Shown: positions 21,412 to 59,512 of the stretch, piece by piece
How the letters are laid out: each line of letters opens with the position of its first letter
Position numbering within the stretch: position 1 is the stretch's first letter
Source of the DNA: Dehalococcoidia bacterium
GTDB taxonomy: Bacteria; Chloroflexota; Dehalococcoidia; SZUA-161; SpSt-899
DNA: 64,000 nt
Assembly (NCBI GenBank): GCA_041300025.1
Contig: JBGLNL010000001.1
Coordinates: 1,211,576-1,275,575 of the forward strand
Reading direction: 5' to 3'
Notes under the pieces: model-generated
Seen by the model: the letters and a program-made list of their open reading frames with translations, nothing else
What the model was told of the DNA's origin: nothing
The model's database searches: none
Made by a program: the position numbers and the translations under genes

Positions 21412-21510
21412 TACCGCTTTTTCAGCCCCCTCGATCCCCTAATCATGGGGGAAGTTTAGATTGGGGGACACCCCCAGACCCCCGAAGTCACCACTTGTTC
21501 AAAAGGTTCC
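21412..21510 (-). repeat. GC-rich hairpin repeat element (GGGGGACACCCCC core), copy A
   Basis: TTGGGGGACACCCCCAGACCCCCGAAGTCACCACT shared with the copies at 38.9, 47.8, 57.0 and 59.4 kb. Confidence 0.7.
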
Positions 21511-22536
21511 TTAAATTATCAGCATGGCGTCCCCAAAACTGTAAAAGCGGTAATCATTCCGAATGGCTTCTTCGTATGCTGCCAGTATCCGTTCCCTCCC
21601 GGCAAAGGCGGCCACCAGCATTAGCAGGGTCGACCTCGGGAGATGGAAATTGGTAATAAGCGTATCCACAGCGCGGAACTCGTAGCCGGGCAGAATATAC
21701 AAATCATTCCAGCCAGTTACCGAACACACTTCCCCATCAGGTTGAATTGCCCGCTCCAGCGACCGCACCGCCGTAGTCCCGACGGCCACGATGCGCCGTT
21801 TCTCCTTTTTTGCCTGATTCAATTTCTGAGCTGTGCTGGCACTCACTTCAAAATATTCACGGTGAAGAGAATGTCCTGCGGGGTCCTCGGACTTGACCGG
21901 ACGGAAAGAGCCGAGCCCGACATGGAGGGTCACAAAAACCAGTTCGATTCCCATCGCAGCAATTCTATCCAGCAAAGCGGGAGTAAAATGCAATCCGGCG
22001 GTTGGAGCCGCCACGCTGCCTTTGGTTCTGGCATAGACCGTTTGATAGCGCTCGGGGTCATCAACCGGTTTGTGGATATATGGGGGCAGGGGCACCTCGC
22101 CGAGATCCTCCAGTAATTCTTCATTATGCAGATGTACCATCACTGTTCCGTTTTCATTTTTCGATTGTACCTCAACCGTGATGCTGCTCTGCTTTTCTTC
22201 GGATTCAATTTCCACCACCGTCCCCGGCCTGACGCGCTTCCCCGGCCTTGCCAGAGACTCCCAGATTGAATCGCCAACCCGGTTCAAAAGGAGAAATTCT
22301 ATCCTCGCTCCACCGCCAGCCTTGTGTCCCAGCAGTCTGGCGGGAATGACCCGGCTTTCGTTTAACACCAGCACATCACCTGATTTAAGATAATCGATGA
22401 TCTCAAAGAAACGGCGATGCTCTATCGAACCATCCGCCCGATTAAGAACCAGCAGGCGCGAATAATCCCGCGGTTCGACCGGGGTCTGAGCAATCATCTC
22501 TGAGGGAAGATAGTACTCGAAATCGGAAGTTTTCAT
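21511..22536 (-). CDS. queA: S-adenosylmethionine:tRNA ribosyltransferase-isomerase
   Basis: MKTSDFEYYLPSEMIAQTPVEPRDYSRLLVL N-terminus. 341 aa. Confidence 0.9.
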   Translation of the reverse strand: MKTSDFEYYLPSEMIAQTPVEPRDYSRLLVLNRADGSIEHRRFFEIIDYLKSGDVLVLNESRVIPARLLGHKAGGGARIEFLLLNRVGDSIWESLARPGKRVRPGTVVEIESEEKQSSITVEVQSKNENGTVMVHLHNEELLEDLGEVPLPPYIHKPVDDPERYQTVYARTKGSVAAPTAGLHFTPALLDRIAAMGIELVFVTLHVGLGSFRPVKSEDPAGHSLHREYFEVSASTAQKLNQAKKEKRRIVAVGTTAVRSLERAIQPDGEVCSVTGWNDLYILPGYEFRAVDTLITNFHLPRSTLLMLVAAFAGRERILAAYEEAIRNDYRFYSFGDAMLII

Positions 22537-23312
22537 GCTTTACCCATGTCCGCGGCAAAAAGCGCCGCTCCGATGGCCCCGATGAGTTGAGGGTCCACGG
22601 GAAATTCAACCAGCTTCGTTCCGAGGGCATTTTCCAGGGAACCTGTCACGCCGGAATTTTTGGCAATGCCACCGGTAAAACCGATATCATTCTTTGCACC
22701 CATATCCTGCAAAAGCGCCAGAATATAACGCGCCGTGTGGTTGCAAATCCCGGCGGCTATATCCGCTGTATTCCTTCCCTCCAGAATCATTCGACGTATC
22801 GTGATCTCGGTCAGGATGCAGCACTGATTTTTCAAAAGCACGGGATTTGAGGCCTGAAGCGCAAGCGGGCCGAGTTCCGAAACATCCACTCCGAGTGCTT
22901 CTGCCATTACCTCCAGCGATTTGCCTGTCCCGGCAGCACACGTCATGTTCATCCGGAAATCCTTCAACTCGCCTCTCTCTCCCACCCTGATAGCTTTACA
23001 ATCCTGCCCGCCCGCATCGATAATCGTCCTTATGGAAGGAACGAGCCACCAGGCACCCCGCCCATGACACGATATTTCGCTAATATTGGTATCTGCAAAG
23101 GGGATTATGCGCCGCCCGTATCCGGTGCTTACACAATAAGCAAGATCATCAAAGGAAAGTCCGAGCAGGGTGAGCAGGCGATCCATTACTTCAGTGGCAG
23201 AACGAACCGCATCGGGCCTTACCGGGATTATCTCGCCTCGCAGAATTTCCCCATCCCGCATAATCACTGCCTTGGCGGTCAGTGCTCCAACATCGCAACC
23301 GGCAACGATCAT
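22533..23312 (-). CDS. BadF/BadG/BcrA/BcrD-type ATPase (2-hydroxyacyl-CoA dehydratase activator, HgdC-like)
   Basis: Actin-fold ATPase. AGCDVGALTAKAVI N-terminus. 259 aa. Confidence 0.85.
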   Translation of the reverse strand: MIVAGCDVGALTAKAVIMRDGEILRGEIIPVRPDAVRSATEVMDRLLTLLGLSFDDLAYCVSTGYGRRIIPFADTNISEISCHGRGAWWLVPSIRTIIDAGGQDCKAIRVGERGELKDFRMNMTCAAGTGKSLEVMAEALGVDVSELGPLALQASNPVLLKNQCCILTEITIRRMILEGRNTADIAAGICNHTARYILALLQDMGAKNDIGFTGGIAKNSGVTGSLENALGTKLVEFPVDPQLIGAIGAALFAADMGKA

Positions 23313-24088
23313 CCTTTCTTTTCCCCTGCCAAAAGAGCAGCACCAAGGGCCGCGATCACCTGAGGATCAATTTCCCCAAGCCAGGCAAGTTTCATTTCCA
23401 GTTTCCTCTCCAGTTCCCTTACCACTACCGCGTTTTTGGCTACTCCTCCCACCATCGCCACTTCGCCGCTCAATCCGGCCCGGCGCGCCACTCCGGCTAT
23501 GCGGCTGGCTACGGCCATCAAAACACCGGCAAACAAATCAATCCTATCGTATCCTTCGTTGATATGAGATATCACATCGCTTTCGGCCAGCACCACGCAA
23601 AGGTTGGTCAGAGGCACAGGACGGGCGGAAATCAGAGAGTCCCTGTTCAATTCATCGATGGGAACCTCCAGAGCGCGTGACATAAGTTCTATGAATCTTC
23701 CCATACCGGCAGAGCAATCATCGGTGATGGCGGAGTTCCACAATTTTCCGTTGGAATCCATGGTGAAAGCATGCAGGGTATGAGAACCGACATCGATCAC
23801 CGTTCTCACTTCGGGATTTATGTATCTTATCGCCCGGATCAGGCATTCTTCCCCGGAAACATCACCAGCAGATCCGGGCACCGCCCTTGCCCCAAACCCT
23901 GTAGCCAGACAGCGATCAATCCGTTCACTGGATATTCCTGCCCTTTCGATGGCCCTGTCAATCACTTCTATCATGGCTTCTTTGGGATTACTGCGATAGG
24001 GCAGCACTTCAGCAGCCAGAATATCCCCGTCATCAAGGATGACCGCTTTTGCCGAGACCATTCCAAGATCACACCCCATAGAAATCAA
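23309..24088 (-). CDS. BadF/BadG/BcrA/BcrD-type ATPase, second copy
   Basis: Paralog of the preceding gene. MGCDLGMVSAKAVI N-terminus. 4-nt overlap. Confidence 0.85.
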   Translation of the reverse strand: MISMGCDLGMVSAKAVILDDGDILAAEVLPYRSNPKEAMIEVIDRAIERAGISSERIDRCLATGFGARAVPGSAGDVSGEECLIRAIRYINPEVRTVIDVGSHTLHAFTMDSNGKLWNSAITDDCSAGMGRFIELMSRALEVPIDELNRDSLISARPVPLTNLCVVLAESDVISHINEGYDRIDLFAGVLMAVASRIAGVARRAGLSGEVAMVGGVAKNAVVVRELERKLEMKLAWLGEIDPQVIAALGAALLAGEKKG

Positions 24089-24325
24089 GGCTTATCTCCC
24101 AATACAGCCCGGCCCAACTTCTGTTCTTTTTCGTTCATACCCGAAAGCATTATAAATCAACCGCTACGCTGCCGTCGAGTTAAATAAGCTTTGCGCCAAT
24201 TCACTTTCTTTGACAATGAAGGGCGATTTCACCTAAAATGAATTCGGCATAAACCTCTTCATTCCAGAGCCAGAGCAAAGGTTGAGGAATTACTGCCCAT
24301 CATCAACCACAACAGGAGAAAGCCT

Positions 24326-25468
24326 ATGCAAGCCATTAAAGAACTAACCAGAGAAATGAAAAACCGCGGAGCCGGACTGAAGGAACTCAAGAAACAGGGG
24401 AAAAAGATAATCGGTTATTTCCCGGGAGGTTATTTCCCGGAGGAACTTGTCCTTGCAGCCGATGCTGTGCCGGTAGCGCTTAACCGTGGCGGAGATCACG
24501 AACCGGTAGAGGTGGCCGGAGCCTACATGAGTCGATGGATTTACACCTTTGCCAGAGCCAATATCGGTTACCGGATTCTCGGAACCGAGCCGGTTTACAA
24601 TATCATAGATGAATATGTCATACCGGTGACGGATAACCACGTGAGGATCGTAGCGGACACATGGGACGTTTTCACCGAGATGACTACTTTCCGGTATGGC
24701 ATCCCCCACACCAAGCATGCATGGTCCGCCGATTATGTTGTCCATGGTTTCAATGCGCTCAAGGACAGGCTGGAGGAACTGACCGGGAACAAAATCACGG
24801 ATGAAAAGATAAAGACAGCAATTGATTTGTGTAACAGGGAACGGGACCTTCTTAAAGAAATCAGCCTGATGCGCCGGTCCAAACGTCCCCCCATCACCAC
24901 CAGAGATTTCGTTATGCTCAATCACGCTTCCCTCCTGCTGGACAAGAAATTTTTAATAACCAAACTGGAAGAGATAGCAACCAGCCTGAGAGAAACCGAA
25001 GGCCCCGAACTAAAAGGCCCCCGGCTAATGCTCATGGGAACCACCCTGGCATATGGAGACCACCGGATTCTCGATTTTATAAACGCCGCCGGAGGGAATG
25101 TAGTGATCGAGGAATTTGGCGAAGGAATCCGGCATTACTGGGAAAAGGTCAATCCTGAGAATGACCTGATGAAGGCTCTGGCCGATAGATATTTCACCCG
25201 GCGGGTGCCGCCGGCATGGTTCCGCCCCGGAACGGAACGAAAGGAATTCGCCGTTAAGCTGGCAAATGACTTCAAAGTAGATGGAGTAGTATGGTATCAG
25301 TTGATGGCCCGCGAAACTGATGATTTCGAATCCTACTGGTTCCCGAAGGTGCTTAAAGAAGGGGCAAATGTGCCTATGCTCAAACTGACCTCGGATTACG
25401 ATTCAGTCGAAAGAGGACAGTTCAATACCAAACTAGAGACCTTCGTCGATTCGATAACAACCGCCTAA
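24326..25468 (+). CDS. 2-hydroxyacyl-CoA dehydratase family subunit (HgdB/BcrB-like)
   Basis: KKIIGYFPGGYFPEELVLAADAVPV N-terminus is typical of the family. 380 aa. Divergent from the activator genes. Confidence 0.8.
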   Translation: MQAIKELTREMKNRGAGLKELKKQGKKIIGYFPGGYFPEELVLAADAVPVALNRGGDHEPVEVAGAYMSRWIYTFARANIGYRILGTEPVYNIIDEYVIPVTDNHVRIVADTWDVFTEMTTFRYGIPHTKHAWSADYVVHGFNALKDRLEELTGNKITDEKIKTAIDLCNRERDLLKEISLMRRSKRPPITTRDFVMLNHASLLLDKKFLITKLEEIATSLRETEGPELKGPRLMLMGTTLAYGDHRILDFINAAGGNVVIEEFGEGIRHYWEKVNPENDLMKALADRYFTRRVPPAWFRPGTERKEFAVKLANDFKVDGVVWYQLMARETDDFESYWFPKVLKEGANVPMLKLTSDYDSVERGQFNTKLETFVDSITTA

Positions 25469-25506
25469 GGGAAATTCATGAATTGCCCCTACTTAAGGAG
25501 ATAAAC

Positions 25507-25632
25507 ATGTATTACAAGGAACTGTTCAAGCTTTTCAATTACACTGATGCGGAAATAGAGAAGGATAAAGAGAGGATCGAGAAGGCCTTTAAGAAGGCAG
25601 ATATCGGGGCTGCAAACTCAAAGCTCTCTTGA
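25507..25632 (+). CDS. 41-aa ORF with strong RBS; possible N-terminal stub of a deleted gene
   Basis: AAGGAG-7nt-ATG. MYYKELFKLFNYTDAEIEKDKERIEKAFKK. Confidence 0.25.
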   Translation: MYYKELFKLFNYTDAEIEKDKERIEKAFKKADIGAANSKLS

Positions 25633-26307
25633 CAAGGCCAATATCCCTTCCGGATCGGAATCCATAGCGATAAATGTCTGAGATTCTGCAGGGAGGGGTT
25701 TGGCGAGGCTGGTGGTGATCTCCTCTATTTTTGTTATGGCATCATCGTATGCAGCGTCTGCGTCCATATCGACATAGGCGTTGGCGATGATATTCATTTT
25801 GTGCTTGACGTGGTCGAAGGCCAGCATGGTATCGGTGAAGAGAAAAATGCAATCCGGCAGGTCGAGTTCGTCGTGTTGTGGTTGAGGCAGTTCTTCGAAG
25901 AAATTGACAATATCGTATGCCATGTAGCCGACTGCCCCGCCGCAGAAGGGTGGAAGTCCGGGTAGGGTAACGGCTTGTCTGGCGCTGAGAATCTCCTGAA
26001 TCAGATGCAGCGGGTCATTATCTGAAAGGGTTATTTTGTGCTCTTCCGATCCGTCGTGGATTATGGCCTGTTTTCCTTTGCTTTCCAGAACCTGCGAGTG
26101 GCCGAGTCCCATGAACGTGTAGCGTCCCAGGTTTTCGCCCCTTTCCACGCTTTCCAGCAGGAAAGTCGGCGCTTCCTGTCCCAGCTTGAGGAACACCGAT
26201 ACCGGCGTATCGAGATCGGCGGCCAGTTCCCGGCAGACCGGGATCAGCACTCCTTTTTCAGCTTTCCTTTTAAATAAGTCTCTATCCGGGAAATATTTAC
26301 CTGCCAT
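25618..26307 (-). pseudogene. trpE: anthranilate synthase component I, N-terminal domain only (catalytic chorismate-binding domain missing)
   Basis: LIPVCRELAADLDTPVSVFLKL TrpE N-terminal signature. It stops after 229 aa. It is preceded by a Trp T-box leader. Confidence 0.7.
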
Positions 26308-26311
26308 TTTT

Positions 26312-26600
26312 CTCCTTCAAAGTCCACCGCAGAGATAATAAAAAACCCCCGTCCCAAAGGGGCGGAGGTTTATCCGCGGTGCCACCCTTTTTAACCGGAT
26401 ACGCTTACAGTACCGGTTATCTTCTTCAGGTACGGCCCTTTTAGCTGGCGATACCCCGGGCTCTGATAACGGTGCCCTTTCCGGCAAAGCCTACTTTCAT
26501 TAGCTGATTTCGGTTTGCGGCTCCCAGGTCCATTCCCATCTGAATCGTATGTACCGGGCTCTCACCTTCCCCGGCTCTCTGTGACTCGCCTTCAAGAGGT
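26312..26600 (-). ncRNA. T-box riboswitch leader (probable Trp specifier UGG) with intrinsic terminator
   Basis: Minus-strand AAAAAGGGTGGCACCGCGG matches the T-box consensus. It is followed by CCTCCGCCCC-TTT-GGGACGGGGG plus a T7 terminator. Upstream are an AGAGAG GA-motif and an AAUGGA specifier candidate. Confidence 0.6.
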
Positions 26601-26918
26601 ACTATTCCTGTTCACAGCCTTTTGGCGCTATTCAATTGTTAATTGCAGAAGTCAATATACAGATTCCCGATGGATTTGTCAAATGCCGCTGCCTTTCAAT
26701 GGGAAATGATCCTGAAGGAGAAATCGGTTTTCAGCGATGTATGAAGTGAATTGACAGGAGGTTACATTTTTGTTGGAGAGGATATCTGAGTTCGTTAATC
26801 TGTCTTTAATCTGAGTGAGGTATAGTGGAATTTTAAGATATACTGTATAGTGTTGTCTGGCATGGCAGAAAGAGATAATTTACATAATGCCACTTTGATT
26901 ATAGAAGGAGAGCCGGGT

Positions 26919-34122: not shown

Positions 34123-34202
34123 GATTTAAATTTCGCCTCCTTTGTGAATATTGCTCATGTTAATCTCGCCCTGATGGGAAATCCACGAATATCATGTTAA
34201 GG

Positions 34203-34355
34203 AATCCCTGATCAACCCCCTGTATCCCCCAATCTTGGGGGAAGTTTGTATTGGGGGACACCCCCAAAACCCCCGGCAGGAAGAATCCTGCACCTCTTTT
34301 CGGATAGCCTGCCACCGAAGTTGGGGGGCCACCCCCCATATCCCCGAAGTCCCCA
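34203..34355 (-). repeat. GC-rich hairpin repeat element, composite copy B
   Basis: TTGGGGGACACCCCCAAAACCCCCGGCAGGAAGAATCCTGCACCTCTTTTC is shared in reverse orientation with the 57.55-kb copy. Confidence 0.7.
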
Positions 34356-34357
34356 TT

Positions 34358-35110
34358 TTAGATAATGACTCCCTGTTCCTTCATGGCGGAAAGCTCGTCC
34401 CAGCTATAGCCGTAATCCATAAGGACTGTTTCCGTATCCTGCCCCAGTTCCGGGGCCAGCGTTCTGATGGTTCCCGGTGTCTCGCTGAAAGTGACCGGCG
34501 AGTGAATCATCTTGAACTTGTAATTGCTGGCTGGCTCCGTTACTTCCTCGAAGAAGCCGTTCTCGTATGCCTGCGGATCGTTTGCTACATCCAGCGGTGT
34601 TTGCACCCATCCCAGCACAATATCAAAATCCCTGGCGATTTGATCCCATTCGGTTGCTGTTTTAGTTGCCGCTATTTTATCCATTTCCGGGATCAGATAC
34701 ATGTTCTGGGCAATCCGTTTCTGATGGGAATTGAACCTTTCGTCTTTCTCCCATTCAGGTTTACCGATAGCCCTGCAGAAGCGATCCCAGAAGAGATCCG
34801 TCTGGGGCATGACGAACATGATCCATTTCTTATCCTTTGTTTTATAGACATTCCACATGAAGTTGGTGACTCTGGTTCTATCGGTTTTAGGGATGTTAAC
34901 ACCAACGTTTAGCGCCGCACCGATATCAAAGGCAGCTCCAAAAACGGCGAAATGGTAGAGGTTGACTTCAACTTTCTGGCCTATGCCCGTTTTCTCTCGA
35001 GCGTAAAGGGCGGCCGAAATGGCTCCGGCAATGCATGGCGCAACCTGGTTATCTCCCAGACCTGCTCTCTGCGGACGGGGATCTGCATCGGTTGAAATGC
35101 GATCCATCAT
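34358..35110 (-). pseudogene. family III CoA-transferase (CaiB/BaiF), lacking the N-terminal ~150 residues
   Basis: It starts at the conserved AALYAREKTGIGQKVEVNL segment. There is no GxRVLDL N-terminal region. Confidence 0.65.
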
Positions 35111-35479
35111 CCCGCTTCTGGCCCACCAGGCAGGGGATTGGATTCCAGATATTTTGCCATAAACTGTGCCAGCGGTTTGGCCAGCGACTTCAAGTTATTA
35201 TACTTCAAAGCGTGCGCTGCGTCACGTGCCAGTTTTTCATGCAGAAAAAGTGAGCGGATGCCGTTGATTTGCAAAGGATGAATACTGCATTTTTGGCAGG
35301 ATGCTCCTTCTTTAAGCGGAAGCCCGCAGGATTCACAGTAAGGCGGTTCCAGCCGGGGGAGTGCTTCCACACAGATAGAACAGATCAATTCCCCTTCAAT
35401 CCCGCATCCGATACATCTTTGGGGTAAAAGGAGATCAAGGGATACTTCCGAGATTCGGGCGAGTTTTGTTTGCAAGACC
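35107..35479 (-). pseudogene. ComF-type double-zinc-ribbon N-terminal domain; phosphoribosyltransferase domain missing
   Basis: CIGCG...CSICV...CESCG...CQKC. ATG lies 2 nt after the pyrD stop. It ends abruptly at the CoA-transferase fragment. Confidence 0.5.
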
Positions 35480-35482
35480 ATC

Positions 35483-36421
35483 TTAAATTCCAGCATTTGC
35501 AACGCCGATGATCTCTGTGAGGTTATTGATTCCCTCTTTTTCCATGAACTGCTCAATCCCTGTGATGATGTTGAGCATGGTTTGAGGATCAGCAAAGGTA
35601 GCTGTTCCCACCTGAACGGCGCTGGCACCGGCCATGATAAACTCAAAAGCGTCGCCGGCTGAAGCGATCCCACCGCATCCGATAACGGGCACTTTTACAA
35701 CTTGGGCAACTTTATAGACCAGATAAAGAGCGAGCGGTTTGATCGCCGGACCGGAAAGTCCTCCGGTAGTGTTGCCCAGCATCGGACGCCGATTGTTAAT
35801 ATCGATGGCCATGCCTTTGAACGTATTGGCAACTGTCAGGCAATCGGCTCCGGCATCAACTACAGCCCGGGCGATTGCGGAGATGTCCGTTACATTCGGG
35901 GTGAGCTTGACTATTACGGGCATGGAGGTCTGTTTTTTTACGGCCGAGGTCACTTCGGCTGCTGTTTTGGGACTGGTTCCAAATTCCATCCCGCCAACTG
36001 ATACGTTGGGACAACTCACATTAACTTCAATTCCAGCAATTCCTGCAATCCCATCCAGTTTGCCTGCTATTTGCGCATATTCCTCGATACTCTCGCCTGA
36101 AATGTTGACGATTACGGGAGTATCCCATTTTGCCCACATGGGCGCTTTATCTTTGATTACAGCTTCGACCCCGATGTTTTCCAGTCCAATCGAATTGAGC
36201 AGACCGTCAACCGTTTCTGCCAGCCTTGGCGATGAATTCCCTTCCCGTGGCCGCAGGGTTACCCCTTTGGAGACGATGGCGCCCAGCTTCTGAATATCGA
36301 TGATATCAGCGTACTCGGTTCCGTAGCCGAAGGTACCGGAGGCAGCTATTACCGGGTTAGGCAACAACAGCCCCCGCTTATTCTGCGGCGCGAGCCGGAC
36401 TGATAAATTCAAATTCCTCAT
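35483..36421 (-). CDS. pyrD: dihydroorotate dehydrogenase catalytic subunit (class 1B)
   Basis: GLLLPNPVIAASGTFGYG... 312 aa. Confidence 0.9.
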   Translation of the reverse strand: MRNLNLSVRLAPQNKRGLLLPNPVIAASGTFGYGTEYADIIDIQKLGAIVSKGVTLRPREGNSSPRLAETVDGLLNSIGLENIGVEAVIKDKAPMWAKWDTPVIVNISGESIEEYAQIAGKLDGIAGIAGIEVNVSCPNVSVGGMEFGTSPKTAAEVTSAVKKQTSMPVIVKLTPNVTDISAIARAVVDAGADCLTVANTFKGMAIDINNRRPMLGNTTGGLSGPAIKPLALYLVYKVAQVVKVPVIGCGGIASAGDAFEFIMAGASAVQVGTATFADPQTMLNIITGIEQFMEKEGINNLTEIIGVANAGI

Positions 36422-36422
36422 G

Positions 36423-36977
36423 CTATTGCGATTTTGATCTTTGTATCGCTCCGACCATCGCTTTGCCGGCAGCTCTGGCCTGACTCATGGCTTCAATATC
36501 ATTTCTGATTTCACCGGGCTCATCGGCATATCCGATGACCCCTCCGGCGAGCGTCATCCTCATCAGGGCAAAATAATCATTCAAAGAACTGTAGGCATTG
36601 CCGCAACCGGCACGATTAGCCACCACTGCGATGCCCCCGACCTTCCCCCTGAGTTTCCGGTGCAACATTAGCGCATAGGTTCGATCGATCAAAATCTTTA
36701 CCTGCCCGCTCACATTCCAGAAATAGACCGGAGTTCCGATGAATATGCCGTCGGCACTGATCAATTTGGGGTAAACATACTGCATATCATCGCTGATGAT
36801 GCACTCACCGCCTTCGAGGCAGAAAGCGCATCCCCGGCAGGGACTGATATCCATTTCAGCGATATTCAGAATTTCCGTTTCCGCCCCGGCCCCCTTTGCC
36901 CCTTCCATGGCTTCGTTTATTATGATTTCGGTATTGCTATTCTTCCGGGGGCTGCCAACGATTCCCAGAATTTTCAT
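36423..36977 (-). CDS. iron-sulfur flavoprotein / NADPH-dependent FMN reductase family
   Basis: ILGIVGSPRKNSNT flavodoxin-like N-terminus. Compact Cys cluster CRGCAFCLEGGEC. Confidence 0.75.
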   Translation of the reverse strand: MKILGIVGSPRKNSNTEIIINEAMEGAKGAGAETEILNIAEMDISPCRGCAFCLEGGECIISDDMQYVYPKLISADGIFIGTPVYFWNVSGQVKILIDRTYALMLHRKLRGKVGGIAVVANRAGCGNAYSSLNDYFALMRMTLAGGVIGYADEPGEIRNDIEAMSQARAAGKAMVGAIQRSKSQ

Positions 36978-37834: not shown

Positions 37835-37840
37835 TAGCCT

Positions 37841-38857: not shown

Positions 38858-38897
38858 TTTTCTTCTCCTTTGAGAATCCTCTGATTAACTTCCTGTA

Positions 38898-38980
38898 TCA
38901 CTCCAAACCGTGGGGAAGGGGAAGATAGGGGGACACCCCCCCAGACCCCCGAAGTCACCACTCATTCACAATATTCCTTA
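38898..38980 (-). repeat. GC-rich hairpin repeat element, copy C
   Basis: GGGGGACACCCCCCCAGACCCCCGAAGTCACCACT. Confidence 0.7.
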
Positions 38981-39343
38981 ACTTGACTGACCGGAATTCC
39001 TTAGATTCTTAGCCCCTCTGATATATATGTGCTCGATCTCGTCAGCGGATTTCTCGGTGTTATATAGAATCAAAATCCGGATGCACTTCTGCAGGCTGCC
39101 GGGCACGTTCATTTCATGTCCGCACATAAGCGCTGTATTTGTCCACCCCATCTGGCGTGCCGCCAGAGCCGGAAATTCGGCATTAAGGTCTGCGGTAGTG
39201 GTGAAAAAAGCGCAAGCCGCTTCGTCCGCCTCAAGCTGATTAGCCTTAATCATTTTATCCAGAAGTTCACTGGTGCCTTGAAGGATCGATTCCCTGGTAT
39301 TTTCACTAACGGTGGTTGCTCCTCTAATTCCACGGCAGCGCAT
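38978..39343 (-). CDS. aroH: chorismate mutase, AroH class
   Basis: RGIRGATTVSENTRESIL... 121 aa. Confidence 0.8.
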   Translation of the reverse strand: MRCRGIRGATTVSENTRESILQGTSELLDKMIKANQLEADEAACAFFTTTADLNAEFPALAARQMGWTNTALMCGHEMNVPGSLQKCIRILILYNTEKSADEIEHIYIRGAKNLRNSGQSS

Positions 39344-39411
39344 AATTTTCTCTCCTTATGCTTAAACAAATGGTATCACTTACGAAGGAGCTTAGCAACC
39401 GGGCCTGATTT

Positions 39412-46307: not shown

Positions 46308-46614
46308 TTCTTCTCCCTGTTATTTGGTAATTAAAGTATGTTACTTATATTGTTATTTTTATGTGAGTATATAAACATCCTCTTTGCTGAGTATATTACT
46401 ATGAAACAAGAGTATTTGTCAAGTCATCAGGGCTCCCGGATTTTGAGGTTCGCGCTGCCTGGCTTCCATCGCTGGCCCCCCCCTTTAATACATTTCCATA
46501 TACCGTTAATCGGCACTTTGGTGCGACTTTTGACTACCGTTCTACCCCCCACATCCCTGCTTGTCAACTCATATTTGTTACCACCCATTAGATTAGCCGA
46601 CCGACACTATTATG

Positions 46615-46676
46615 CCTGTCCCATCCCCGCCTGCGAGGTTTGTGGCACCGGGATACAAAGGAGCATGCTTATATTA
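46615..46676. promoter_or_regulatory. conserved ~60-nt intergenic motif, copy 1 (CCTGYCCCATCNCCNCCTGCGAGGTTTGTG...CATGCTTA)
   Basis: Near-identical to 50358-50418. Confidence 0.45.
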
Positions 46677-46740
46677 GTAAAGGGGAACGCTATCCGGCTC
46701 GTGGATATTGAGTGCTGGCAGATTATGTAGTGCGGATTAT

Positions 46741-47100
46741 GAAGAGCATGAGATAGGAGACAAGCTGGAAGAGCAGGAAAAACTCGAAAAAAAGGAGGAA
46801 CGGAATGGATGAATTAAAAAACAAAGAGCGGGAAGAGATTGACGAATTAACGATCAACGAGCATGCGATGGGAGACATGCTGGAGAGCAAGAGAAACTCG
46901 AAAGAACAAGGAGGAATGGAATGGACACAGCAGTAAAGAACAATGGGCATGAGACGGAAGACAAGCTGGAAGCGCAGGAGAAACTAGTAAAAAAAGGAGG
47001 AAAAGGAATGAACACAACAGTAAAGACCAATGAGCATGAGACGGAGATCAATGAGCATGAGATGGGAGACCAGATGGAAGTGCTGGAGAAACTCGATGAA
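46741..47100 (+). repeat. degenerate tandem repeat, period ~110 bp, ~3.5 copies, each with an SD+ATG
   Basis: Reiterated GAGCATGAGATGGGAGAC...AAGCTGGAAGNGCAGGAGAAACTCG...AAAGGAGGAANGGAATGGA units. Confidence 0.65.
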
Positions 47101-47466
47101 ATTATGGTCGAGGGTGAAACCAGCATTGATGACGACGTTGTAGCTGCTATCGCCGGGGTGGCGGCACAGGAAGTCGAGGGTGTTGCCAGCATGGGAACCG
47201 CCTCCATTCAACGTTCTATCTCGGAAGTCGTCGGCCGATCCGAGAAACGATCCAGAGGTGTAGAAGGCGAGCATGGCAAGAAAGAGGCGATCGTCGACCT
47301 CACACTGAAGGTGAATTACGGATTCAGTATTCCCGAGATAATTATTCAGGTTCGCAAAAATGTCGCTATGCGTCTTCTGGATCTATGTGGACTGATTGTT
47401 AAAGAAGTCAACATAACTATAGCCGGCATTGAATTCCCGGAGAAAGTATCCGACACATTGAAATAG
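46921..47466 (+). CDS. asp23: Asp23/Gls24-family alkaline shock protein with repeat-derived N-terminal extension
   Basis: DDVVAAIAGVAAQEVEGVASM Asp23 core. The true start may be an internal Met (47033 or 47063). Confidence 0.75.
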   Translation: MDTAVKNNGHETEDKLEAQEKLVKKGGKGMNTTVKTNEHETEINEHEMGDQMEVLEKLDEIMVEGETSIDDDVVAAIAGVAAQEVEGVASMGTASIQRSISEVVGRSEKRSRGVEGEHGKKEAIVDLTLKVNYGFSIPEIIIQVRKNVAMRLLDLCGLIVKEVNITIAGIEFPEKVSDTLK

Positions 47467-47798
47467 TTAATAATCTGAATCCGTGGAAGGGATAGGAGAG
47501 AGGGGATTTTATTTCTTAATCTTCTTTCTTTGCAAGTTGTTCTGAGGCATGCGCCCCACTCGAAGGCGTGAGAGCCTATTTAAAGGCATCTTCTCACCCA
47601 TGAGGTGAAGATTATATGTACTTTAAGACAAAGTCAGGGCGGGGGACGGATCAACTTGCCAGCCATTCAGGCTTGATCCCTGATGGTGGGCAATACTGGA
47701 CAAGAGTAATGTGCGAGAGCGATTAAAGGCGGTAGTGTTGCTCGAATATCCCTCCACGGATTTTAGGTGATAACCCGGAGATAAAATTCTATAACTAA

Positions 47799-47895
47799 GG
47801 AACCTTGTGAATAAGTGGTGACTTCGGGGGTCTGGGGGTGTTCCCCCAGCTTCCACCTTTCCCCAGGTTTGGGGTGATACAGGGAGTTGATCACA
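47799..47895 (+). repeat. GC-rich hairpin repeat element, copy D
   Basis: GGAACCTTGTGAATAAGTGGTGACTTCGGGGGTCTGGGGGTGTTCCCCCAG. Confidence 0.7.
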
Positions 47896-47933
47896 AGATT
47901 CCCAAAATAAGCACTGAAGTGTGGTAAATAAGT

Positions 47934-50211: not shown

Positions 50212-50341
50212 AGTTGACACACCTCCTCGGTACACTTTAGTGTACCACTCATTACCACTTAGGCGCACTTTAAGAATAGTATTGTACCCCCCCCTCCCCG
50301 CATTTGTCAAGTCTTATCGGGGGCCATCGGTTAGGCTAGAA

Positions 50342-50434
50342 GGCCTGCACTAACATACCTGTACCATCACCTCCTGCGAGGTTTGTGCCTTCCGGATAAA
50401 AGGCACATGCTTACATCAGATACAAATGCAGGCC
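50342..50434. promoter_or_regulatory. conserved ~60-nt intergenic motif, copy 2, bracketed by the 8-bp inverted repeat GGCCTGCA/TGCAGGCC
   Basis: CCTGTACCATCACCTCCTGCGAGGTTTGTGCCTTCCGGATAAAAGGCACATGCTTACAT. An internal GTGCCTT/AAGGCAC hairpin. Confidence 0.45.
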
Positions 50435-53001: not shown

Positions 53002-53010
53002 GTAAATTTA

Positions 53011-53140
53011 TAGGGAACCTATTCAGCCCCCTTGTGTCCCCCAGCTTCAAATCCCCTCTCTTTCCCCCTTTGTGAAAGGGGACGAAAAGGGAGTTTGGGA
53101 ATACAAGGGGGTTGAAAAAGACTTATTGGACAGCCTGTTT
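53011..53140. repeat. GC-rich hairpin repeat element, variant copy E, with GGGGGTTGAAAAAGA...GACAGCCTG module
   Basis: GGAACCTATTCAGCCCCCTTGTGTCCCCCAG; TTTCCCCCTTTGTGAAAGGGGA. Confidence 0.6.
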
Positions 53141-54872: not shown

Positions 54873-55138
54873 TGCGACTATCCTTCTATCTTTAATCCTT
54901 CAGGTTATTGGGGATATCCCATCGACCCGTTTGGAGCCACCTTTCCGATGATTCCTCTATTTCTTTTTACCCTTTTTCTTGCTCCCTGAATCTATAATCT
55001 CATCGAGGTCATCAGCTTTCGTCTTCTTCACGGGGGCTTTCGGCGCGCGAGGTATATTGCCCTGCATATCATCTATTTCGGAATCCATTAGAACATCAGG
55101 TATATTTAGTGGAAAAAGAACCTTCCATCGGTGGGGTC

Positions 55139-57022
55139 ATGGCTCAACTGGATAAGACCTTCCCCACGATGGATTGCGCTATCTGAATACTCGGCCCCAA
55201 AATGATGGATGCCGGTCGGCATCCCAGGATTAAACTGCTGACCTTGAGCGAGGTCGAAGAGGTCAACGGTTATGTTGGCAACTTCAAAGTAAAAGTGCGC
55301 AAAAAGGCAAGATACGTCAATGAGAAAGAATGCACTGCCTGTAACGATTGCGCTGAAGTTTGCCCGGTAACCTGTCCGGATGAATATCAGGCTGGACTCG
55401 GCACCAGAAAGGCTATTTATATCCCCTTCGCTCAGGCGGTGCCATCGGCTTATGTGATAAACCCGGAAAATTGTCTGGGAAGTAATCCGATTGCCTGCGG
55501 TAAATGTGCCGAAGCCTGCGAGAAAAAATGCATCGATTTCGATATGCAGGATGAGATAATCGAGCTCGATGTTGGAACCATCATCGTGGCTACCGGTATG
55601 GATGTGTATGATCCCACGGAGATGGATGAATACGGTTATACCCGGTTTGATAATGTGGTCACCAGCCTGGAATTTGAGCGTCTGATCTGTGCTGATGGCC
55701 CGGCGGAAGGCCACCTCGTGCGGCCCGGCGATCGCAAAACGCCCCGGCGCATCGGATTTATCCAGTGTGTCGGGTCTCGAATGGAGAATCGGGGGAATCC
55801 CTACTGCTCCAATATTTGCTGCATGAATACAGTGAAGGATAGCCTGCTCCTCAAGGAGCACTATCCCGATACCGAAATATTCGTGTTCTATATAGATATG
55901 CGGGCCTTCGGCAAGGGATTCGAAGCTATGCTGAAACGCAGCCACGAGGTTGGAGTGAATTATATCCGCGGCCTGCCCGGCAGTGTCATGGAAGACCCAA
56001 AAACCGGCAACCTGATCGTGGATGTGGAGAACACCACCGCCGGAAGGCTGGAGCAATATAATCTCGATCTGCTGATTCTCGCTGTAGGACTGGTGCCGCG
56101 CGCCGAAGGGGAGCATCTTCGCCAGATATTGAACCTTTCCAAGACAAGCGACGGATTCCTGATGGAAGCCCATCCCAAATTAAGGCCTGTCGATGCCCCT
56201 ACTCCGGGGGTTTTTCTCGCCGGGTGCGTGGAATCGCCCAAGGATGTTAAGGACAGCGTTACTCAGGCCAGTGCGGCCGCTTCCCGGGCTTCCGTTATTC
56301 TCAATTCCGATAAACTTACCGTAGAAGCCATCACCGCAGTGGTCGATAAGGAAAAATGCACCGCCTGCGGAGTCTGTGCCCGCGTGTGCCCTTACGGAGC
56401 CATCAAATTTGATAAGGAAGCAAAAGCCCCGGCGGAAGTGATCGAGGCCATGTGCGCCGGTTGCGGCGTCTGTGCCGCCGAGTGCCAGTTCGATGCTATC
56501 AGCATCCGTCATTTCAGTGATGAAGCCCTGATGGCGCAAACTGAATCCGCGGTGGCGGAAAGAGCCGACGAAAGAATAGTTGTCTTTGCCTGCAACTGGT
56601 GTTCCTATGCCGGTGGAGACGGGGCAGGCACATCACGCCTGCAATATCCGCCCAATTCCCGCATCATCCGGACCATGTGCAGCGGGCGAGTTGATGAGAA
56701 GTTCATTCTGCGGGCATTCGAACTGGGAGCAGCGATGGTGCTGGTTTCCGGCTGCCATTTTTCTGATTGCCACTACATCGATGCCAATCGGTGGGCCCAG
56801 CGCCGGGTGGATAAATTATGGAACAAGATGGAGAAGCTGGGAATACGTCCGGAGCGGTTGCAACTGGAATGGATCAGCGCGGCCGAAGGGCAGAAGTTTG
56901 CCAGTGTGATGCGCGAGATCGAAGGCATGCGCCGGAAAGTCACTGCTGAAGAGATTGAACATACGAAAAAAGTGCTCAAAGAGGATCGGGAGAAGAGGGC
57001 TAAAAAGGAAAAGAAAAAGTAG
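55139..57022 (+). CDS. hdrA: HdrA-like heterodisulfide reductase subunit fused to an MvhD domain. Probable selenoprotein (in-frame TGA at 55184). The N-terminal FAD-binding region is missing.
   Basis: The frame through the TGA reads [48 protein letters not shown], matching the HdrA consensus with Sec at the Cys position. A GGATGCC-GGTC-GGCATCC hairpin lies 21 nt after the TGA. The C-terminal [14 protein letters not shown] region is MvhD-like. The conventional ORF is 55202..57022. Confidence 0.6.
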
Positions 57023-57026
57023 CTGG

Positions 57027-57350
57027 GGAACCTCTGATTAAGTAGTGCAGGAAGCATCCTGCCGGGGGTCTGGGGGTATCCCCCAGTTTCGATCTCAGGC
57101 TGTCCGAAAATTTAGAAAAAGTGTCATTCTGAGGAATTTATGATGAAGAATCTCCGAGGCTCAGTTTTATAAAGAGATTCTTCATCCGCCCGAGGCGGAT
57201 TCAGAATGACATACCCGGGAGTTTTCAGACAACCTGAGACAAGAGGGCTGAAAAAGAGTTTCGGACAGACTGTCCGGTGAGCTTGGGAGATGGATTCCGG
57301 CTCGGAGGCCGGAATGACATATCATATTGAGTTGTCGGAGTAATAATATA
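57027..57350 (+). repeat. GC-rich hairpin repeat element, copy F, plus adjacent large inverted repeats
   Basis: GGAACCTCTGATTAAGTAGTGCAGGAAGCATCCTGCCGGGGGTCTGGGGGTATCCCCCAG. GTCATTCTGAGGAAT...ATTCCTCAGAATGAC and GAAGAATCTC...GAGATTCTTC inverted repeats. Confidence 0.65.
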
Positions 57351-57408
57351 GAGTCAGGAGTCAGAATACCCTTGACATTTCACTGATAACTGACAACCCG
57401 GAGAAAAC

Positions 57409-57543
57409 ATGCCAGAACAGGATAATTTCAAATGTCTTCGCTGCGGGTACGAGTATTCCCTCCCCAGGCCGGAGAAAAACAAGCTTGAGGAGCGGACATG
57501 TCCCAAGTGCCGCAGCAACAGCGTTCGAAAGATGGGGGAGTAA
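57409..57543 (+). CDS. 44-aa zinc-ribbon protein
   Basis: MPEQDNFKCLRCGYEY...CPKCRSNS: two CxxC pairs. Embedded between repeat elements. Confidence 0.4.
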   Translation: MPEQDNFKCLRCGYEYSLPRPEKNKLEERTCPKCRSNSVRKMGE

Positions 57544-57545
57544 TA

Positions 57546-57830
57546 CTTCAGGCTGTCTGAAAAGAGGTGCAGGATTCTTCCTGCCGGGGGTTTTGGGGGT
57601 GTCCCCCAATATAACCTTCCCCCATGATTGGGGGATTGAGGGGGTTGAAAAAGAGTTTTTAGACAGCCTGATTGAGGTGAGGGTGAATATCTCATTTGGT
57701 CGCTCTCATTCACTATGCTGGCAACCATGCTTCGCATTTCCCCCTCACTCTAACTCTCTCCCCCGAGGGGAGAGAGGACTTCATTTCCCCCTTTGGCAAA
57801 GGGGGAAATGATCAAAGGTTCCTTAACTAA
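57546..57830 (+). repeat. GC-rich hairpin repeat element, composite copy G, with additional perfect palindromes
   Basis: CAGGATTCTTCCTGCCGGGGGTTTTGGGGGTGTCCCCCAAT...GGGGGTTGAAAAAGAGTTTTTAGACAGCCTG. CTCTCTCCCCCGAGGGGAGAGAG. TTTCCCCCTTTGGCAAAGGGGGAAA. Confidence 0.7.
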
Positions 57831-57861
57831 TGGTTAGCCCCCAAATAACAATAAATATAAT

Positions 57862-57890
57862 TTGACAATCGATTCATTTGTGGGTATATT
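57862..57890 (+). promoter_or_regulatory. sigma70-type promoter for mazE (TTGACA-17-TATATT)
   Basis: -35 TTGACA and -10 TATATT, ~20 nt upstream of the GGAGA RBS and ATG at 57910. Confidence 0.55.
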
Positions 57891-57909
57891 GTAATTACAT
57901 GAACCACAA

Positions 57910-58176
57910 TTGGAGACGAAAATGACGACTTTAATCAGAATAGGAAATTCGCAGGGTGTCCGTATTCCAAAGGCGATAATCGAGCAAGCACGATTAGAAG
58001 ACAAGCAATTGGAATTTAAAATAATCGACGACGGACTGTTAATTCAACCGGTTAAGAAGACCAGAGAAGGCTGGAAAGAACAATTTGATAAAGCCCTTAA
58101 ATCCCAGGATTCAAGCGAAGCAGATCAGGAGTGGTTGGACGCCTCATTGGTAGATGAAGAGGACTGGGAATGGTAA
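57910..58176 (+). CDS. mazE: MazE/PemI-type antitoxin (AbrB-fold)
   Basis: MTTLIRIGNSQGVRIPKAII. Confidence 0.8.
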   Translation: METKMTTLIRIGNSQGVRIPKAIIEQARLEDKQLEFKIIDDGLLIQPVKKTREGWKEQFDKALKSQDSSEADQEWLDASLVDEEDWEW

Positions 58177-58499
58177 AAAAAAATGTTCATAGATTTGATA
58201 TTTGGCTGGTTCAACTTGATCCGACACAAGGTTCTGAAATTAAGAAAACAAGGCCTTGTGTTGTTATCTCCCCTGATGAAATGTCTGCACTGAAGACCGC
58301 GATTGTTGCTCCAATGACATCCAAAGGATTTAGCTATCCAACCAGAATTCAATATACATTTCAGGGTAAAAAAGGATTGATCCTGCTTGACCAAATGAGA
58401 ACCGTTGACAAATCCAGGTTAATTCAAAAACTTGGTGTAATTTCTCAAAGCGCGCAGATTAAGACTATCAATTGTTTACAAGAGCTTTTCGCGTATTAA
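58170..58499 (+). CDS. mazF: MazF/PemK-type endoribonuclease toxin
   Basis: IWLVQLDPTQGSEIKKTRPCVVISPDEM. 7-nt overlap with the antitoxin. Confidence 0.85.
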   Translation: MVKKNVHRFDIWLVQLDPTQGSEIKKTRPCVVISPDEMSALKTAIVAPMTSKGFSYPTRIQYTFQGKKGLILLDQMRTVDKSRLIQKLGVISQSAQIKTINCLQELFAY

Positions 58500-58589
58500 G
58501 GGGCTAACCACGGCATTAAGGCGACGGCAAAAAGCCGTTGCCCCTTATTCTGGCGTGTTATCTGTCCTGGAAAAACTGAATGAAACCCT

Positions 58590-59138
58590 ATGGCCAATAC
58601 AGCAACCGAAGATCCTAAGAACTCGATCAAACTGTATGATGCTGGCGGTGGATACCTGGTCACCCTTGTACTTGGAATTCCTGTTGCTGGTTCTATAGCA
58701 GATGGAATCTGGAATTATGTTGTTCTCACCTTAACCCTTCATCCGCTGAAAAAATACTTCAGGATAGAAGAGCCTATCGAAACAAGCGTAGATTCTCAAT
58801 TGTGGTTTTTACGCCGACGATCAGAAATAACTACAGGTGACAGAATCTTCTATAGTTTTATTATTACTATCGCTGGTATATTGATCGACGCCGTGTATTT
58901 CTTTATGGTTTGGAACCCATTCAGTGAGGGAGAAAATGGATCATGGTGGGAAGCTAGAGTTGACATGGGCTTTCAAATTGCACTTATACTGGTACCAATA
59001 ATCTTACTTGGATTATCTAACTACTACTTGGCATCACGATTTCTCGAACTCAATCACAGGCATTCTCTCATCGTTGCATCGAGCATGGCGTTTTTTACTG
59101 CTCCGTGGTTATTACTCTTGGTACCGAGTTTGTCTTGA
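58590..59138 (+). CDS. hypothetical membrane protein
   Basis: 182 aa with 4-5 predicted TM helices. AT-rich context. Confidence 0.45.
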   Translation: MANTATEDPKNSIKLYDAGGGYLVTLVLGIPVAGSIADGIWNYVVLTLTLHPLKKYFRIEEPIETSVDSQLWFLRRRSEITTGDRIFYSFIITIAGILIDAVYFFMVWNPFSEGENGSWWEARVDMGFQIALILVPIILLGLSNYYLASRFLELNHRHSLIVASSMAFFTAPWLLLLVPSLS

Positions 59139-59414
59139 ATAAGAAGTGTACAGATAACGAGCTAATCAACCTGAATCCTCGCCGCTGGCAGATGCGGTGA
59201 TCTGCACAAAATCCGCCTTTTCCCCTATTTGATCAAATTACGGTTGACTTTTATGTTCTATACGATATATACTAAACCGTAGAATTACTCTATGTAGAAT
59301 GTCAATACTTATTTATTTATAGTATTCAAGGATCATAAGGCCAAGCTAAGTTAATACATAGTAAATAAAAACTTAACAGCCATAATTTGGCCAAATAAAA
59401 GGTGAGATTTGGGA

Positions 59415-59512
59415 GCGACAGGCTGCGCAGCCTAGCTAAGGAACCTCTGAATAAGTGGTGACTTCGGGGTTTGGGGGGTACAGGGGGTTGATCAGAGTTT
59501 CCCTAATTAATC
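59415..59512 (+). repeat. GC-rich hairpin repeat element, copy H
   Basis: AGGCTGCGCAGCCT palindrome. GGAACCTCTGAATAAGTGGTGACTTCGGGGTTTGGGGGGTACAGGGGGTTGATCAG. Confidence 0.7.

Follow-up and report, generated by a model that had tools for sequence, protein, structure and literature searches.

Several families of short intergenic repeats described in other bacteria resemble the one reported here, a dispersed family of elements built around GGGGG/CCCCC hairpins that lies in a 64,000-nucleotide stretch of DNA (the window) from a Dehalococcoidia bacterium of the Chloroflexota (contig JBGLNL010000001.1). The Correia elements of Neisseria (CREE or NEMIS) are non-coding, measure about 100-155 bp, carry terminal inverted repeats (TIRs) and duplicate a TA; they occur in many intergenic copies beside genes with which they are likely co-transcribed, form a long stem closed by their inverted repeats, and have promoter, IHF-site and RNase III functions. 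The RUP elements of Streptococcus pneumoniae (about 107 bp) and the miniature inverted-repeat transposable elements (MITEs) mobilised by IS630 target and duplicate TA and are non-autonomous, with mobilisation presumed to occur in trans; in the case of RUP a parent with matching ends, IS630-Spn1, is known. The ERIC/IRU and BOX elements of enterobacteria and pneumococci are structured intergenic repeats of about 120 nt with stably folding transcripts, a modular construction and indel-bearing copies. The repetitive extragenic palindromes (REPs) and bacterial interspersed mosaic elements (BIMEs) of Escherichia coli and Pseudomonas are extragenic, hairpin-forming mosaics whose modules occur both ways round with a bias in orientation, and roles in mRNA stability have been proposed for them. 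REPs themselves are 20-40 bp palindromes tagged with GTAG or CGTC, have neither TIRs nor target-site duplications (TSDs), and flank the gene for their own REP-associated tyrosine transposase, RAYT (PMC3733652).

We consider it probable that the repeats in the window belong to a MITE-like family of non-autonomous transposable elements, 105-126 bp long and with a conserved structured core, in uncultured Dehalococcoidia, and that the sites in the window are copies, chimeras and remnants of such elements. The original prediction, made from the letters of the window alone, had likened them to REP or MITE elements; the MITE half of this is upheld by TIRs, TSDs, empty sites and multiple copies, whereas the REP half falls for lack of a 20-40 bp palindrome tagged with GTAG or CGTC. 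Judged by sequence, the family belongs to none of the Correia, RUP or BIME families, and would work like the Correia/RUP-type MITEs with a BIME-like mosaicism. It differs from Correia elements in having inverted repeats of 14-16 bp rather than 26 bp, in showing no sequence similarity to them, in its Chloroflexota host, and in its three-hairpin G5/C5 core, which is also found between other tips and with a TSD of different length. It differs from RUP, the parent insertion sequence (IS) of which is known, in that part of the family makes 5-bp duplications, the hallmarks of REPs (the 20-40 bp size, the tag, and the absence of TIRs and TSDs) are lacking, and no RAYT gene was found among the 28 window ORFs scanned. 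ERIC/IRU and BOX belong to other phyla and have other sequences, and the TSDs and empty sites found here are direct evidence of transposition.

We compared the window with itself, and scanned the whole of it, with filters off, with a covariance model trained mainly on copies from other genomes (foreign copies). The motif GGGGGNNNCCCCC occurs six times in the window against an expectation of 0.19, and none of 100 shuffles reached six. Dispersed repeats in both orientations were confined to the eight sites named in the original prediction, with pairwise identities of 78-94% over 50-100 nt: positions 34212-34311 and 57549-57648 are 93% identical over 100 nt in inverted orientation, the 21.4-kb and 47.8-kb copies (21458-21513 and 47796-47851) are 91% identical over 56 nt, and 38903-38980 is 78% identical to 47796-47873. 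The copies align far beyond their GGGGG and CCCCC runs, the modules of the predicted consensus are present as written, and both orientations can be read directly in the sequence, as can the block CAGGAAGAATCCTGCACCTCTTTTC that the 34.2-kb and 57.55-kb copies share inversely (34278-34302 and 57556-57580). The model recognised six window copies carrying a core of about 90 nt, with E values from 3e-21 to 4.5e-5: 34211-34301 on the minus strand (89.1 bits, E 3.2e-21), 57559-57649 on the plus strand (85.6 bits, E 2.7e-20), 21421-21499 on the minus strand (58.6 bits, E 2.4e-13), 47810-47891 on the plus strand (48.8 bits, E 7.9e-11), 57037-57140 on the plus strand (42.8 bits, with its 3' part interrupted) and 38884-38966 on the minus strand (26.5 bits, E 4.5e-5). 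At the remaining two sites, 53.0 and 59.4 kb, deletion or decay has left derivatives that the model sees only as fragments (E 0.37 and 0.52) and that still share the termini. With no credible match within 1-21 kb, this amounts to six cores and several fragments in 43 kb of the window. The predicted count of at least eight copies is a fair one for the window, with the proviso that 57.0-57.8 kb holds not two elements but a cluster of several, nested or partial. As had been predicted, every copy is intergenic, lying between long open reading frames (ORFs); the copies are on the minus strand at 21-39 kb and on the plus strand at 47-59 kb.

A full-length consensus and its TIRs were derived from 13 copies in five other metagenome-assembled genomes (MAGs), and the core was analysed in two alignments, A2 (138 non-redundant cores) and A3 (fitted to the model). 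Intact elements measure 105-126 bp, those with the tip pair called TIR1 being 105-110 bp and those with TIR3 118-126 bp, and the consensus, of about 106 bp, reads TA-AGGAAsCTCTGAATAAGTGGTGACTTCGGGGGTCTGGGGGTGTCCCCCAGATATAAAAGTCCCCCAAGACTGGGGGATACAGGGGGTTGATCAGAGGTTCCyT-A. The terminal inverted repeats of the TIR1 type span 14-16 bp (tip pair TAAGGAAsCTCTGA/TCAGAGGTTCCyTA); the TIR2 tip pair, which encloses the same core, is CAGGCTGTCTGAAAA/TTTTTAGACAGCCTG, and that of TIR3 is GAGACYGCTGAAA/TTTCAGCRGTCTC. Written as RNA from its 5' end, the core of about 90 nt consists of (CUGAAA)AAGAGGUG, the stem P2, CGGGGGUYU, the hairpin P3 (GGGGG-UGU-CCCCC), an A/U-rich linker of 9-14 nt, the hairpin P4 (UCCCCC-AAGAYU-GGGGGA) and WNAGGGGGUUGA-3'. 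On A2 the conserved unit opens with the purine-rich segment AAGAGGTG and closes, after P4, with WNAGGGGGTTGA. The element has no conserved ORF, and the ATG of the 57.5-kb copy is not kept in other copies.

The sequence of P2 is lineage-specific while its stem is kept (GCAGGA..TCCTGC, GCAGAGGGGC..GCCCCTTTGC, GTCCTTCC..GGAAGGAC, GCCCCGAT..ATCGGGGC and TCCAGAGGG..CCCTCTGG), and in the TIR1 subfamily it has shrunk to GTGGTGACTTC. Changes in P2 are compensatory, with both sides varying in nine of ten pairs on A2 and in all eight on A3. On the latter alignment 90.9% of cells are paired as against 80.5% in shuffles, and the covariation score of the stem is 0.294, compared with 0.111 when shuffled and at most 0.118 when the partners are slid. 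The pair just outside P3 alternates between U-A (55) and C-G (46). The G5/C5 stems themselves almost never vary, and are therefore constrained as sequence and uninformative on structure. Intact elements fold into a four-way arrangement of a closing stem and three hairpins, with z scores of -4 to -6 (for the 57.5-kb copy, -63 kcal/mol and z -5.9), and the chimeric copies of the window do not fold in this way.

Evidence of insertion comes from three orthologous sites that are empty in relatives. The spacer between the genes for chorismate mutase (38978-39343, minus strand) and DAHP synthase (37841-38857, minus strand), which holds the 38.9-kb copy, is 120 nt long in the window and 14-17 nt long in relatives (contigs L024 and L025-L028, with DAHP synthase 92% identical). 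Here the empty site (..CAAGTTAGAGGAGAAG..) gives CAAGT-TA-GAGG, whereas the filled one (CAAGT-TA-AGGAAT...GGATTCT-CA-AAGGAGAAG) gives CAAGT-TA-(element)-CA-AAGG; the insertion went into the TA of the TAG stop codon and brought a new TAA, which now serves as the chorismate mutase stop. At the end of queA (21511-22536, minus strand) two relatives (L149 and L150) read ..ATAATTTAAGAACAACC at the junction on the left, without an element, where the window reads ..ATAATTTAAGGAACCTTTTG.., the TA(A) of the 21.4-kb copy doubling as the queA stop codon. Finally, the HdrA-like gene and the 44-aa zinc-ribbon gene that follows it are separated by 10 nt in the relative L160, as against a 387-nt element mosaic in the window.

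The target-site duplications expected of such insertions are found for two tip types. TA stands at both ends of all 13 intact TIR1 copies, at YTAA-like targets, although the search pattern itself contained the TA, so these flanks are not an independent test. Among the 21 copies of the TIR3 type, five (24%) have a perfect 5-bp TSD as against 0.7% in mismatched controls, and at least four of the five TSD bases match in 62% as against 5.5%, with no signal at other lengths; the 5-bp direct repeats are A/T-rich. By analogy, the TA-inserting subfamily would reflect an enzyme of the IS630/Tc1-mariner type, and the subfamily with 5-bp TSDs would use a different enzyme.

The elements and fragments in the window are the following.

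21393-21515, minus strand: copy c21.4, TIR1 at its left tip (TTTAAGGAACCTTTTGA), with a degenerate right arm resembling TIR2 and a core that lacks P2.
34198-34311, minus strand: copy c34.2a, with a TIR2 left tip (CAGGCTATCCGAAAA), a full core (P2, P3 and P4) and a TIR1 right tip (TCAGGGATTCCTTA).
34312-34365, minus strand: partial copy c34.2b, a decayed 5' half of TIR1 type that ends in a P3-like hairpin (GGGGGGTGGCCCCCC).
38871-38982, minus strand: copy c38.9, a decayed TIR1...TIR1 element.
47796-47906, plus strand: copy c47.8, 111 nt long with TIR1 tips at both ends, located between two Asp23-family genes.
53012-53137, plus strand: copy c53.0, degenerate; between its left tip, which is TIR1-like (TAGGGAACCT), and its right tip, which is TIR2-like (GGACAGCCTG), it has the remnant of P3, one additional hairpin (CTTTCCCCCTTTGTGAAAGGGGAC) and the joiner J3.
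57022-57095, plus strand: 5' half of copy c57.0, with a TIR1 left tip, P2 (GCAGGAAGCATCCTGC), the joiner J1 and P3.
57096-57236, plus strand: nested element, with TIR2 tips (CAGGCTGTCCGAAAA ... TTTTCAGACAACCTG) around an unrelated interior with a long hairpin (GTCATTCTGAGG...TTCAGAATGAC).
57237-57272, plus strand: 3' remnant of c57.0, J3-like GAGGGCTGAAAAAGAG followed by a TIR2-like right tip (TTTCGGACAGACTG), with P4 lost.
57290-57325, plus strand: hairpin repeat of a second type, ATTCCGGC-TCGGAG-GCCGGAAT, followed by GACAT.
57548-57671, plus strand: copy c57.5, an intact TIR2...TIR2 element of 124 nt with a full core.
57740-57826, plus strand: two more hairpins (CTCTCTCCCCCGAGGGGAGAGAG and ATTTCCCCCTTTGGCAAAGGGGGAAAT) and an orphan TIR1 right tip (TGATCAAAGGTTCCTTAA).
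59436-59505, plus strand: copy c59.4, 70 nt long with TIR1 tips at both ends, internally deleted from the G run of P3 to that of J3.

The window copies are chimeric, nested and decayed. TIR1 tips stand at both ends at 47.8 kb, at 38.9 kb and, in the internally deleted copy, at 59.4 kb, and TIR2 tips do so at 57.55 kb; TIR1 is combined with TIR2 at 21.4 and 53.0 kb, and TIR2 with TIR1 at 34.2 kb, where c34.2a is, to judge from its tips, a chimera of two subfamilies. The partial copy c34.2b abuts the TIR2 tip of c34.2a 11 nt past its P3 (partial model match 34321-34346, E 0.16) and the nested element at 57096-57236 sits 11 nt past the P3 of c57.0, so that at two places, 34.31 and 57.10 kb, a TIR2 tip starts 11 nt past the P3 of a 5' half of TIR1 type. 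The modular mosaic of the original prediction is explained by three processes: exchange through the core that the copies share, nesting, and deletions from one G run to another. Some of these forms recur: a second copy of the c53.0 variant, 89-93% identical, lies on same-species contigs (L154 6888-6993 and L156 3801-3903), and the identical deletion form of c59.4 is present in PPR_0277 (L012) and in L159. The TIR1 left tip at 57024 and the orphan TIR1 right tip at 57812-57825 bracket 802 nt comprising the element cluster and the zinc-ribbon gene, which may be a coincidence or a stuffed composite element.

In the mechanism we propose, the elements would be integrated by a transposase supplied in trans. 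The TIR1 subfamily (tips TAAGGAAsCTCTGA) enters at TA and has a TA on both sides, and a second subfamily (tips GAGACYGCTGAAA) duplicates 5-bp A/T-rich targets. Because copies share the core, they can recombine through it, which yields the TIR1/TIR2 chimeras; elements also nest into one another 11 nt past P3, and deletions between G runs erode them. Since the core is far more conserved than the tips, we infer that selection on the element keeps it, either because it is needed for propagation or because it is harmless or useful in transcripts.

The copies show a strand bias relative to genes. In all eight window copies the G-rich core strand is sense to the immediate upstream gene, and six or seven of the eight start 0-10 nt past the upstream stop codon: c53.0 begins 10 nt past the stop of a tRNA methyltransferase gene, c57.0 at the TAG stop of the HdrA-like gene (55202-57022) and c57.5 4 nt past the stop of the zinc-ribbon gene (57410-57543). 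Two window copies supply the stop codon of the upstream gene themselves. For foreign copies, where genes are crude ORF calls, those in co-directional spacers are sense in 38 cases and antisense in 12 (P=3e-4), the upstream neighbour is on the same strand at 80 loci as against 40, and 19 copies lie between divergent and 10 between convergent genes. The genes flanking the elements are ordinary housekeeping genes, and no gene recurs beside them.

The original prediction had allowed that the hairpins might act as transcription terminators, and this role is not borne out. On the sense strand P3 and P4 are followed by AAUAUAAC and AUUGAGGGGG, without T runs, and sites resembling terminators number 21 where chance gives 15.8 +/- 4.0, with element matches on the antisense strand only; an intrinsic (rho-independent) terminator is not supported. 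The stabilising role in mRNA that the original prediction also raised, or one in processing, would fit the sense-strand bias. On the antisense strand P2 is followed by CACCUCUUUUUC / CACCTCTTTTTC; P2 with CACCTCTTTTTC could be mildly terminating, which might explain the rarity of antisense copies inside operons. A promoter reading of the conserved 3' TTGA was also set aside, as a -10 box at suitable spacing was not consistently present in the copies inspected by eye; nor is there any excess of promoter-like sites (19 against 16.6 +/- 3.9).

A number of observations weigh against a MITE-like family, and we gather them here. Neither the window ORFs nor the neighbours of foreign copies yielded an autonomous element or a transposase with ends that match. 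The 28 window ORFs scanned included no transposase, RAYT or other, and none was found among representatives of the ten largest protein clusters near foreign copies, which were obtained by all-against-all clustering of 721 ORFs from carrier loci; the largest cluster spans ten loci and its representative is a PAS sensor kinase, while the next nine are ordinary enzymes. Tip pairs 0.7-3 kb apart were absent but for the 802-nt bracket at 57024-57825. The TIR2-tipped copies of the window have no recognisable TSD, and for a further tip type, GAGGTCGTTTA, duplications of 6-9 bp were suggested in two or three cases without statistical signal. At the one fully resolved empty site CA stands in place of the right-hand TA, presumably through mutation. 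Only 18 of 150 foreign copies have a strong inverted repeat when gaps are disallowed (score at least 9), and the duplex energy of the flanks is only modestly better than that of mismatched controls (P=6e-4), so the closing stem is not part of the conserved core, and we no longer regard it as a universal feature. Window copies that are chimeric or decayed have no matched tip pair; many copies may be immobile remnants, or the core may spread otherwise. It is also unusual that the core is far better conserved than the tips, the reverse of the usual MITE pattern, and the crudeness of the foreign gene calls bears on the orientation statistics. The idea that the core invades pre-existing palindromes was rejected, as a search for 'empty shells' (tips without a core) found none and element lengths are tight.

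One alternative, which overlaps with the reading of the family as MITE-like, is that the core is chiefly a host-useful structured RNA in transcripts, such as a 3'-end protector, a processing site or an insulator, with the tips as its vehicle. The compensatory P2 stem points this way, as does the near-invariance of P3, P4 and the G5 joiners across lineages that differ in tips and TSDs; on the G-rich strand, moreover, P2 has 37 G-U pairs against 13 A-C pairs. The sense bias (8/8 in the window, 38:12 in co-directional spacers) and the start of most window copies 0-10 nt past a stop codon would also fit, and if antisense P2 with CACCUCUUUUUC could terminate, this would explain selection against antisense copies in operons. 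However, the same spacers lack elements in close relatives, and the flanking genes therefore do not need them; copies c38.9, c53.0 and c59.4 are visibly decayed; no T tract follows the sense hairpins and terminator sites are not in excess; about a quarter of copies are antisense, and many copies lie between divergent genes; and the invariant stems lack covariation support and would be explained equally by DNA-level recognition. We regard this explanation as rather unlikely. As a tentative possibility, the core may instead be a functional structured nucleic-acid module of Dehalococcoidia (RNA, or single-stranded or cruciform DNA) under purifying selection in its own right, maybe a hairpin/G-quadruplex switch working through its four G5 tracts, that is carried as cargo with the tips of at least two transposition systems and rides MITE shells and phages.

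Hairpin-rich, mosaic, extragenic and strand-biased elements also call to mind REP/BIME-like sequences moved as single-stranded DNA by a RAYT-type (IS200-like, HUH Y1) transposase, and two further observations speak for such a system: the cores are accompanied by a simpler hairpin repeat of a second kind, which GCAATGACR follows, and the relative L160 encodes a 177-aa protein that matches the NCBIfam 'REP-associated tyrosine transposase' (E 4.6e-17, 62 bits) and Pfam Y1_Tnp (27 bits) and carries HIH and YY motifs. Yet the elements have TIRs and fixed-length target duplications (TA or 5 bp), which HUH Y1 transposition does not yield, neither GTAG nor CGTC tags the conserved columns of the 138 cores, and the unit is 105-126 bp long, not 20-40 bp. 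The L160 protein falls short of the NCBIfam cut-off of 80 bits, and its gene lies in a trp operon at a locus without an element copy. A cognate RAYT- or IS200-like gene, for which the original prediction had suggested a search, is absent from the 28 window ORFs scanned, and the L160 gene has no adjoining repeats; transposition of this kind is accordingly improbable. The L160 gene (9820-10353, minus strand) is a RAYT-like Y1 homologue between trpB and trpF that has the look of a gene domesticated or embedded in an operon, and its protein had no match among solved structures.

The original prediction had further proposed that the repeats mark breakpoints of deletion or rearrangement, which would make them scars or drivers of the events that truncated genes in the window. 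In keeping with this, the chimeric TIR1/TIR2 copies show recombination via the shared core, and several truncated genes do lie less than 1 kb from a copy. The truncations, however, look like contig joins. The window is collinear with same-species MAG contigs (98-99%) only in the blocks 20842-25612, 35127-39833 and 55094-59747, with discontinuities at each of their edges (20842, 25612, 35127, 39833, 55094 and 59747), where a sulfotransferase gene, HGD-D, DZR_2/PRT, a CoA-transferase gene, an Hdr-like operon and an ORF are cut. All the mapped discontinuities fall inside genes, 190-840 nt away from the closest copy, and none of the joins has a repeat at it; the gene order broken in the window is conserved in relatives and in six same-species MAGs; and the blocks are 4771, 4707 and 4654 nt long, as for size-sorted contigs joined end to end. 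Falling block sizes, joins in mid-gene and broken conserved gene order lead us to conclude that the window probably consists of size-sorted MAG contigs joined without spacers, the truncated genes being contig ends. We consider it very improbable that the repeats caused these breaks, and the claim that they mark them is not supported. The 2.3-Mb 'scaffold' of PPR_0277 was dropped as a synteny reference because it is itself a join of short contigs.

The family extends well beyond the window, in many copies in other genomes. A 24-nt element pattern was found at 15 loci in five Dehalococcoidia/Chloroflexi MAGs, including Saanich Inlet and BLK bins, with nine loci in one MAG and up to six copies in 13 kb at one locus. 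A looser core pattern occurs on at least 120 metagenome contigs and one phage contig, and the covariance model gives 166 matches at E<=1e-5 in 100 loci among the matches listed. All three carrier contigs that could be named taxonomically are from Dehalococcoidia or Chloroflexota, and contigs of the Dehalococcoidia MAGs GCA_0412998xx to GCA_0413000xx encode QueA, DAHP synthase and HdrA-like proteins identical to those of the window. As expected of a high-copy repeat, which breaks assembly, short-read contigs from this species stop within elements at 21425, 21472, 38908 and 38962. On the phage contig (L158, IMGVR_UViG_3300009127_000063), copies of the TIR3 type at 1-100 and 2470-2620 flank the terminase region, and its phage genes encode a terminase-like protein, an SPP1-type portal, a capsid protein and an SU10 adaptor; phage carriage is a possible route of spread between lineages.

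Rfam 15 at the gathering threshold matched only a T-box leader in the window and had no family for the core, and at E<=10 on 57000-57900 nothing above noise overlapped it; the weak match to whalefall-1 (E 0.022, below threshold) falls on the neighbouring hairpin CTCTCTCCCCCGAGGGGAGAGAG and was rejected for the core. The literature searched holds no mention of the core sequence, of MITEs in Dehalococcoidia or of such intergenic hairpin repeats, and two REP surveys in it name Chloroflexi only in passing.

Other repeats and genes along the window were noted in passing. The second repeat type is a hairpin with an outer stem ATTGC...GCAAT (ATTCC...GGAAT in the window) followed by GACR, often with GAGATTGCTTCGC..CTCGCAATGACA. 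In the window it occurs at 57124-57216 and 57290-57325 as a hairpin followed by G(C/A)AATGACR, and it is common in carrier contigs, often directly upstream of the core (for example L035 5136, L049 10080 on the minus strand, and L082 1488). Short hairpin modules at 53062-53085, 57754-57776 and 57783-57809 have the form TTTCCCCCTTT-loop-AAAGGGGGAAA or CTCTCTCCCCCGAGGGGAGAGAG, and in foreign loci the former likewise occurs downstream of cores. The element cluster is followed directly by a MazE/MazF toxin-antitoxin pair (57910-58499), found in the same place in L159 and not in the relative L160. At 46744-47101 four copies of a 49-nt unit, spaced 86-115 nt apart, and a pair of 75-nt repeats, 80% identical, none of them related to the G5/C5 family, lie just upstream of and overlap the start of an Asp23-family gene (46921-47466). 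A 98-nt direct repeat (46561-46658 and 50304-50401, 71%), which starts TTGTCAA, has one copy inside the ORF 46338-46730, while the other spans the beginning of a gene for a LuxR-type response regulator; the two may share a regulatory region. Diverged direct repeats in neighbouring long ORFs (1230-1529/2995-3294, 76% over 300 nt; 6842-6928/8640-8726, 70% over 87 nt) are most likely tandem paralogous genes. The T-box leader (26355-26624, minus strand; RF00230, 115.5 bits) is upstream of an N-terminal fragment of anthranilate synthase component I (25618-26307, minus strand), which ends within a few bases of the edge of a block.

Anoxic sediments and the deep and oxygen-poor ocean harbour abundant Dehalococcoidia, almost all of which are uncultured and known mostly from fragmented MAGs. 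A dense repeat family breaks short-read assemblies of such genomes, whose contigs stop inside copies, and can mislead the annotation of gene ends, since two genes of the window take their stop codon from an element; its insertions offer a marker for polymorphism between strains. The covariance model, with an alignment of about 150 copies, would permit a census across the Chloroflexota and a candidate RNA or repeat database entry. The significance of the family lies in its breadth in a major uncultured class and in a structured core common to different transposition shells. The contrast between an invariant interior and variable tips and TSD lengths points to a constraint on the interior, for example as a binding platform for a host factor or transposase or through a function at the transcript level. 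If the core is indeed a functional module in its own right, then it would be no decaying derivative of an IS but would represent a previously undescribed class of mobile element with a regulatory or structural role.

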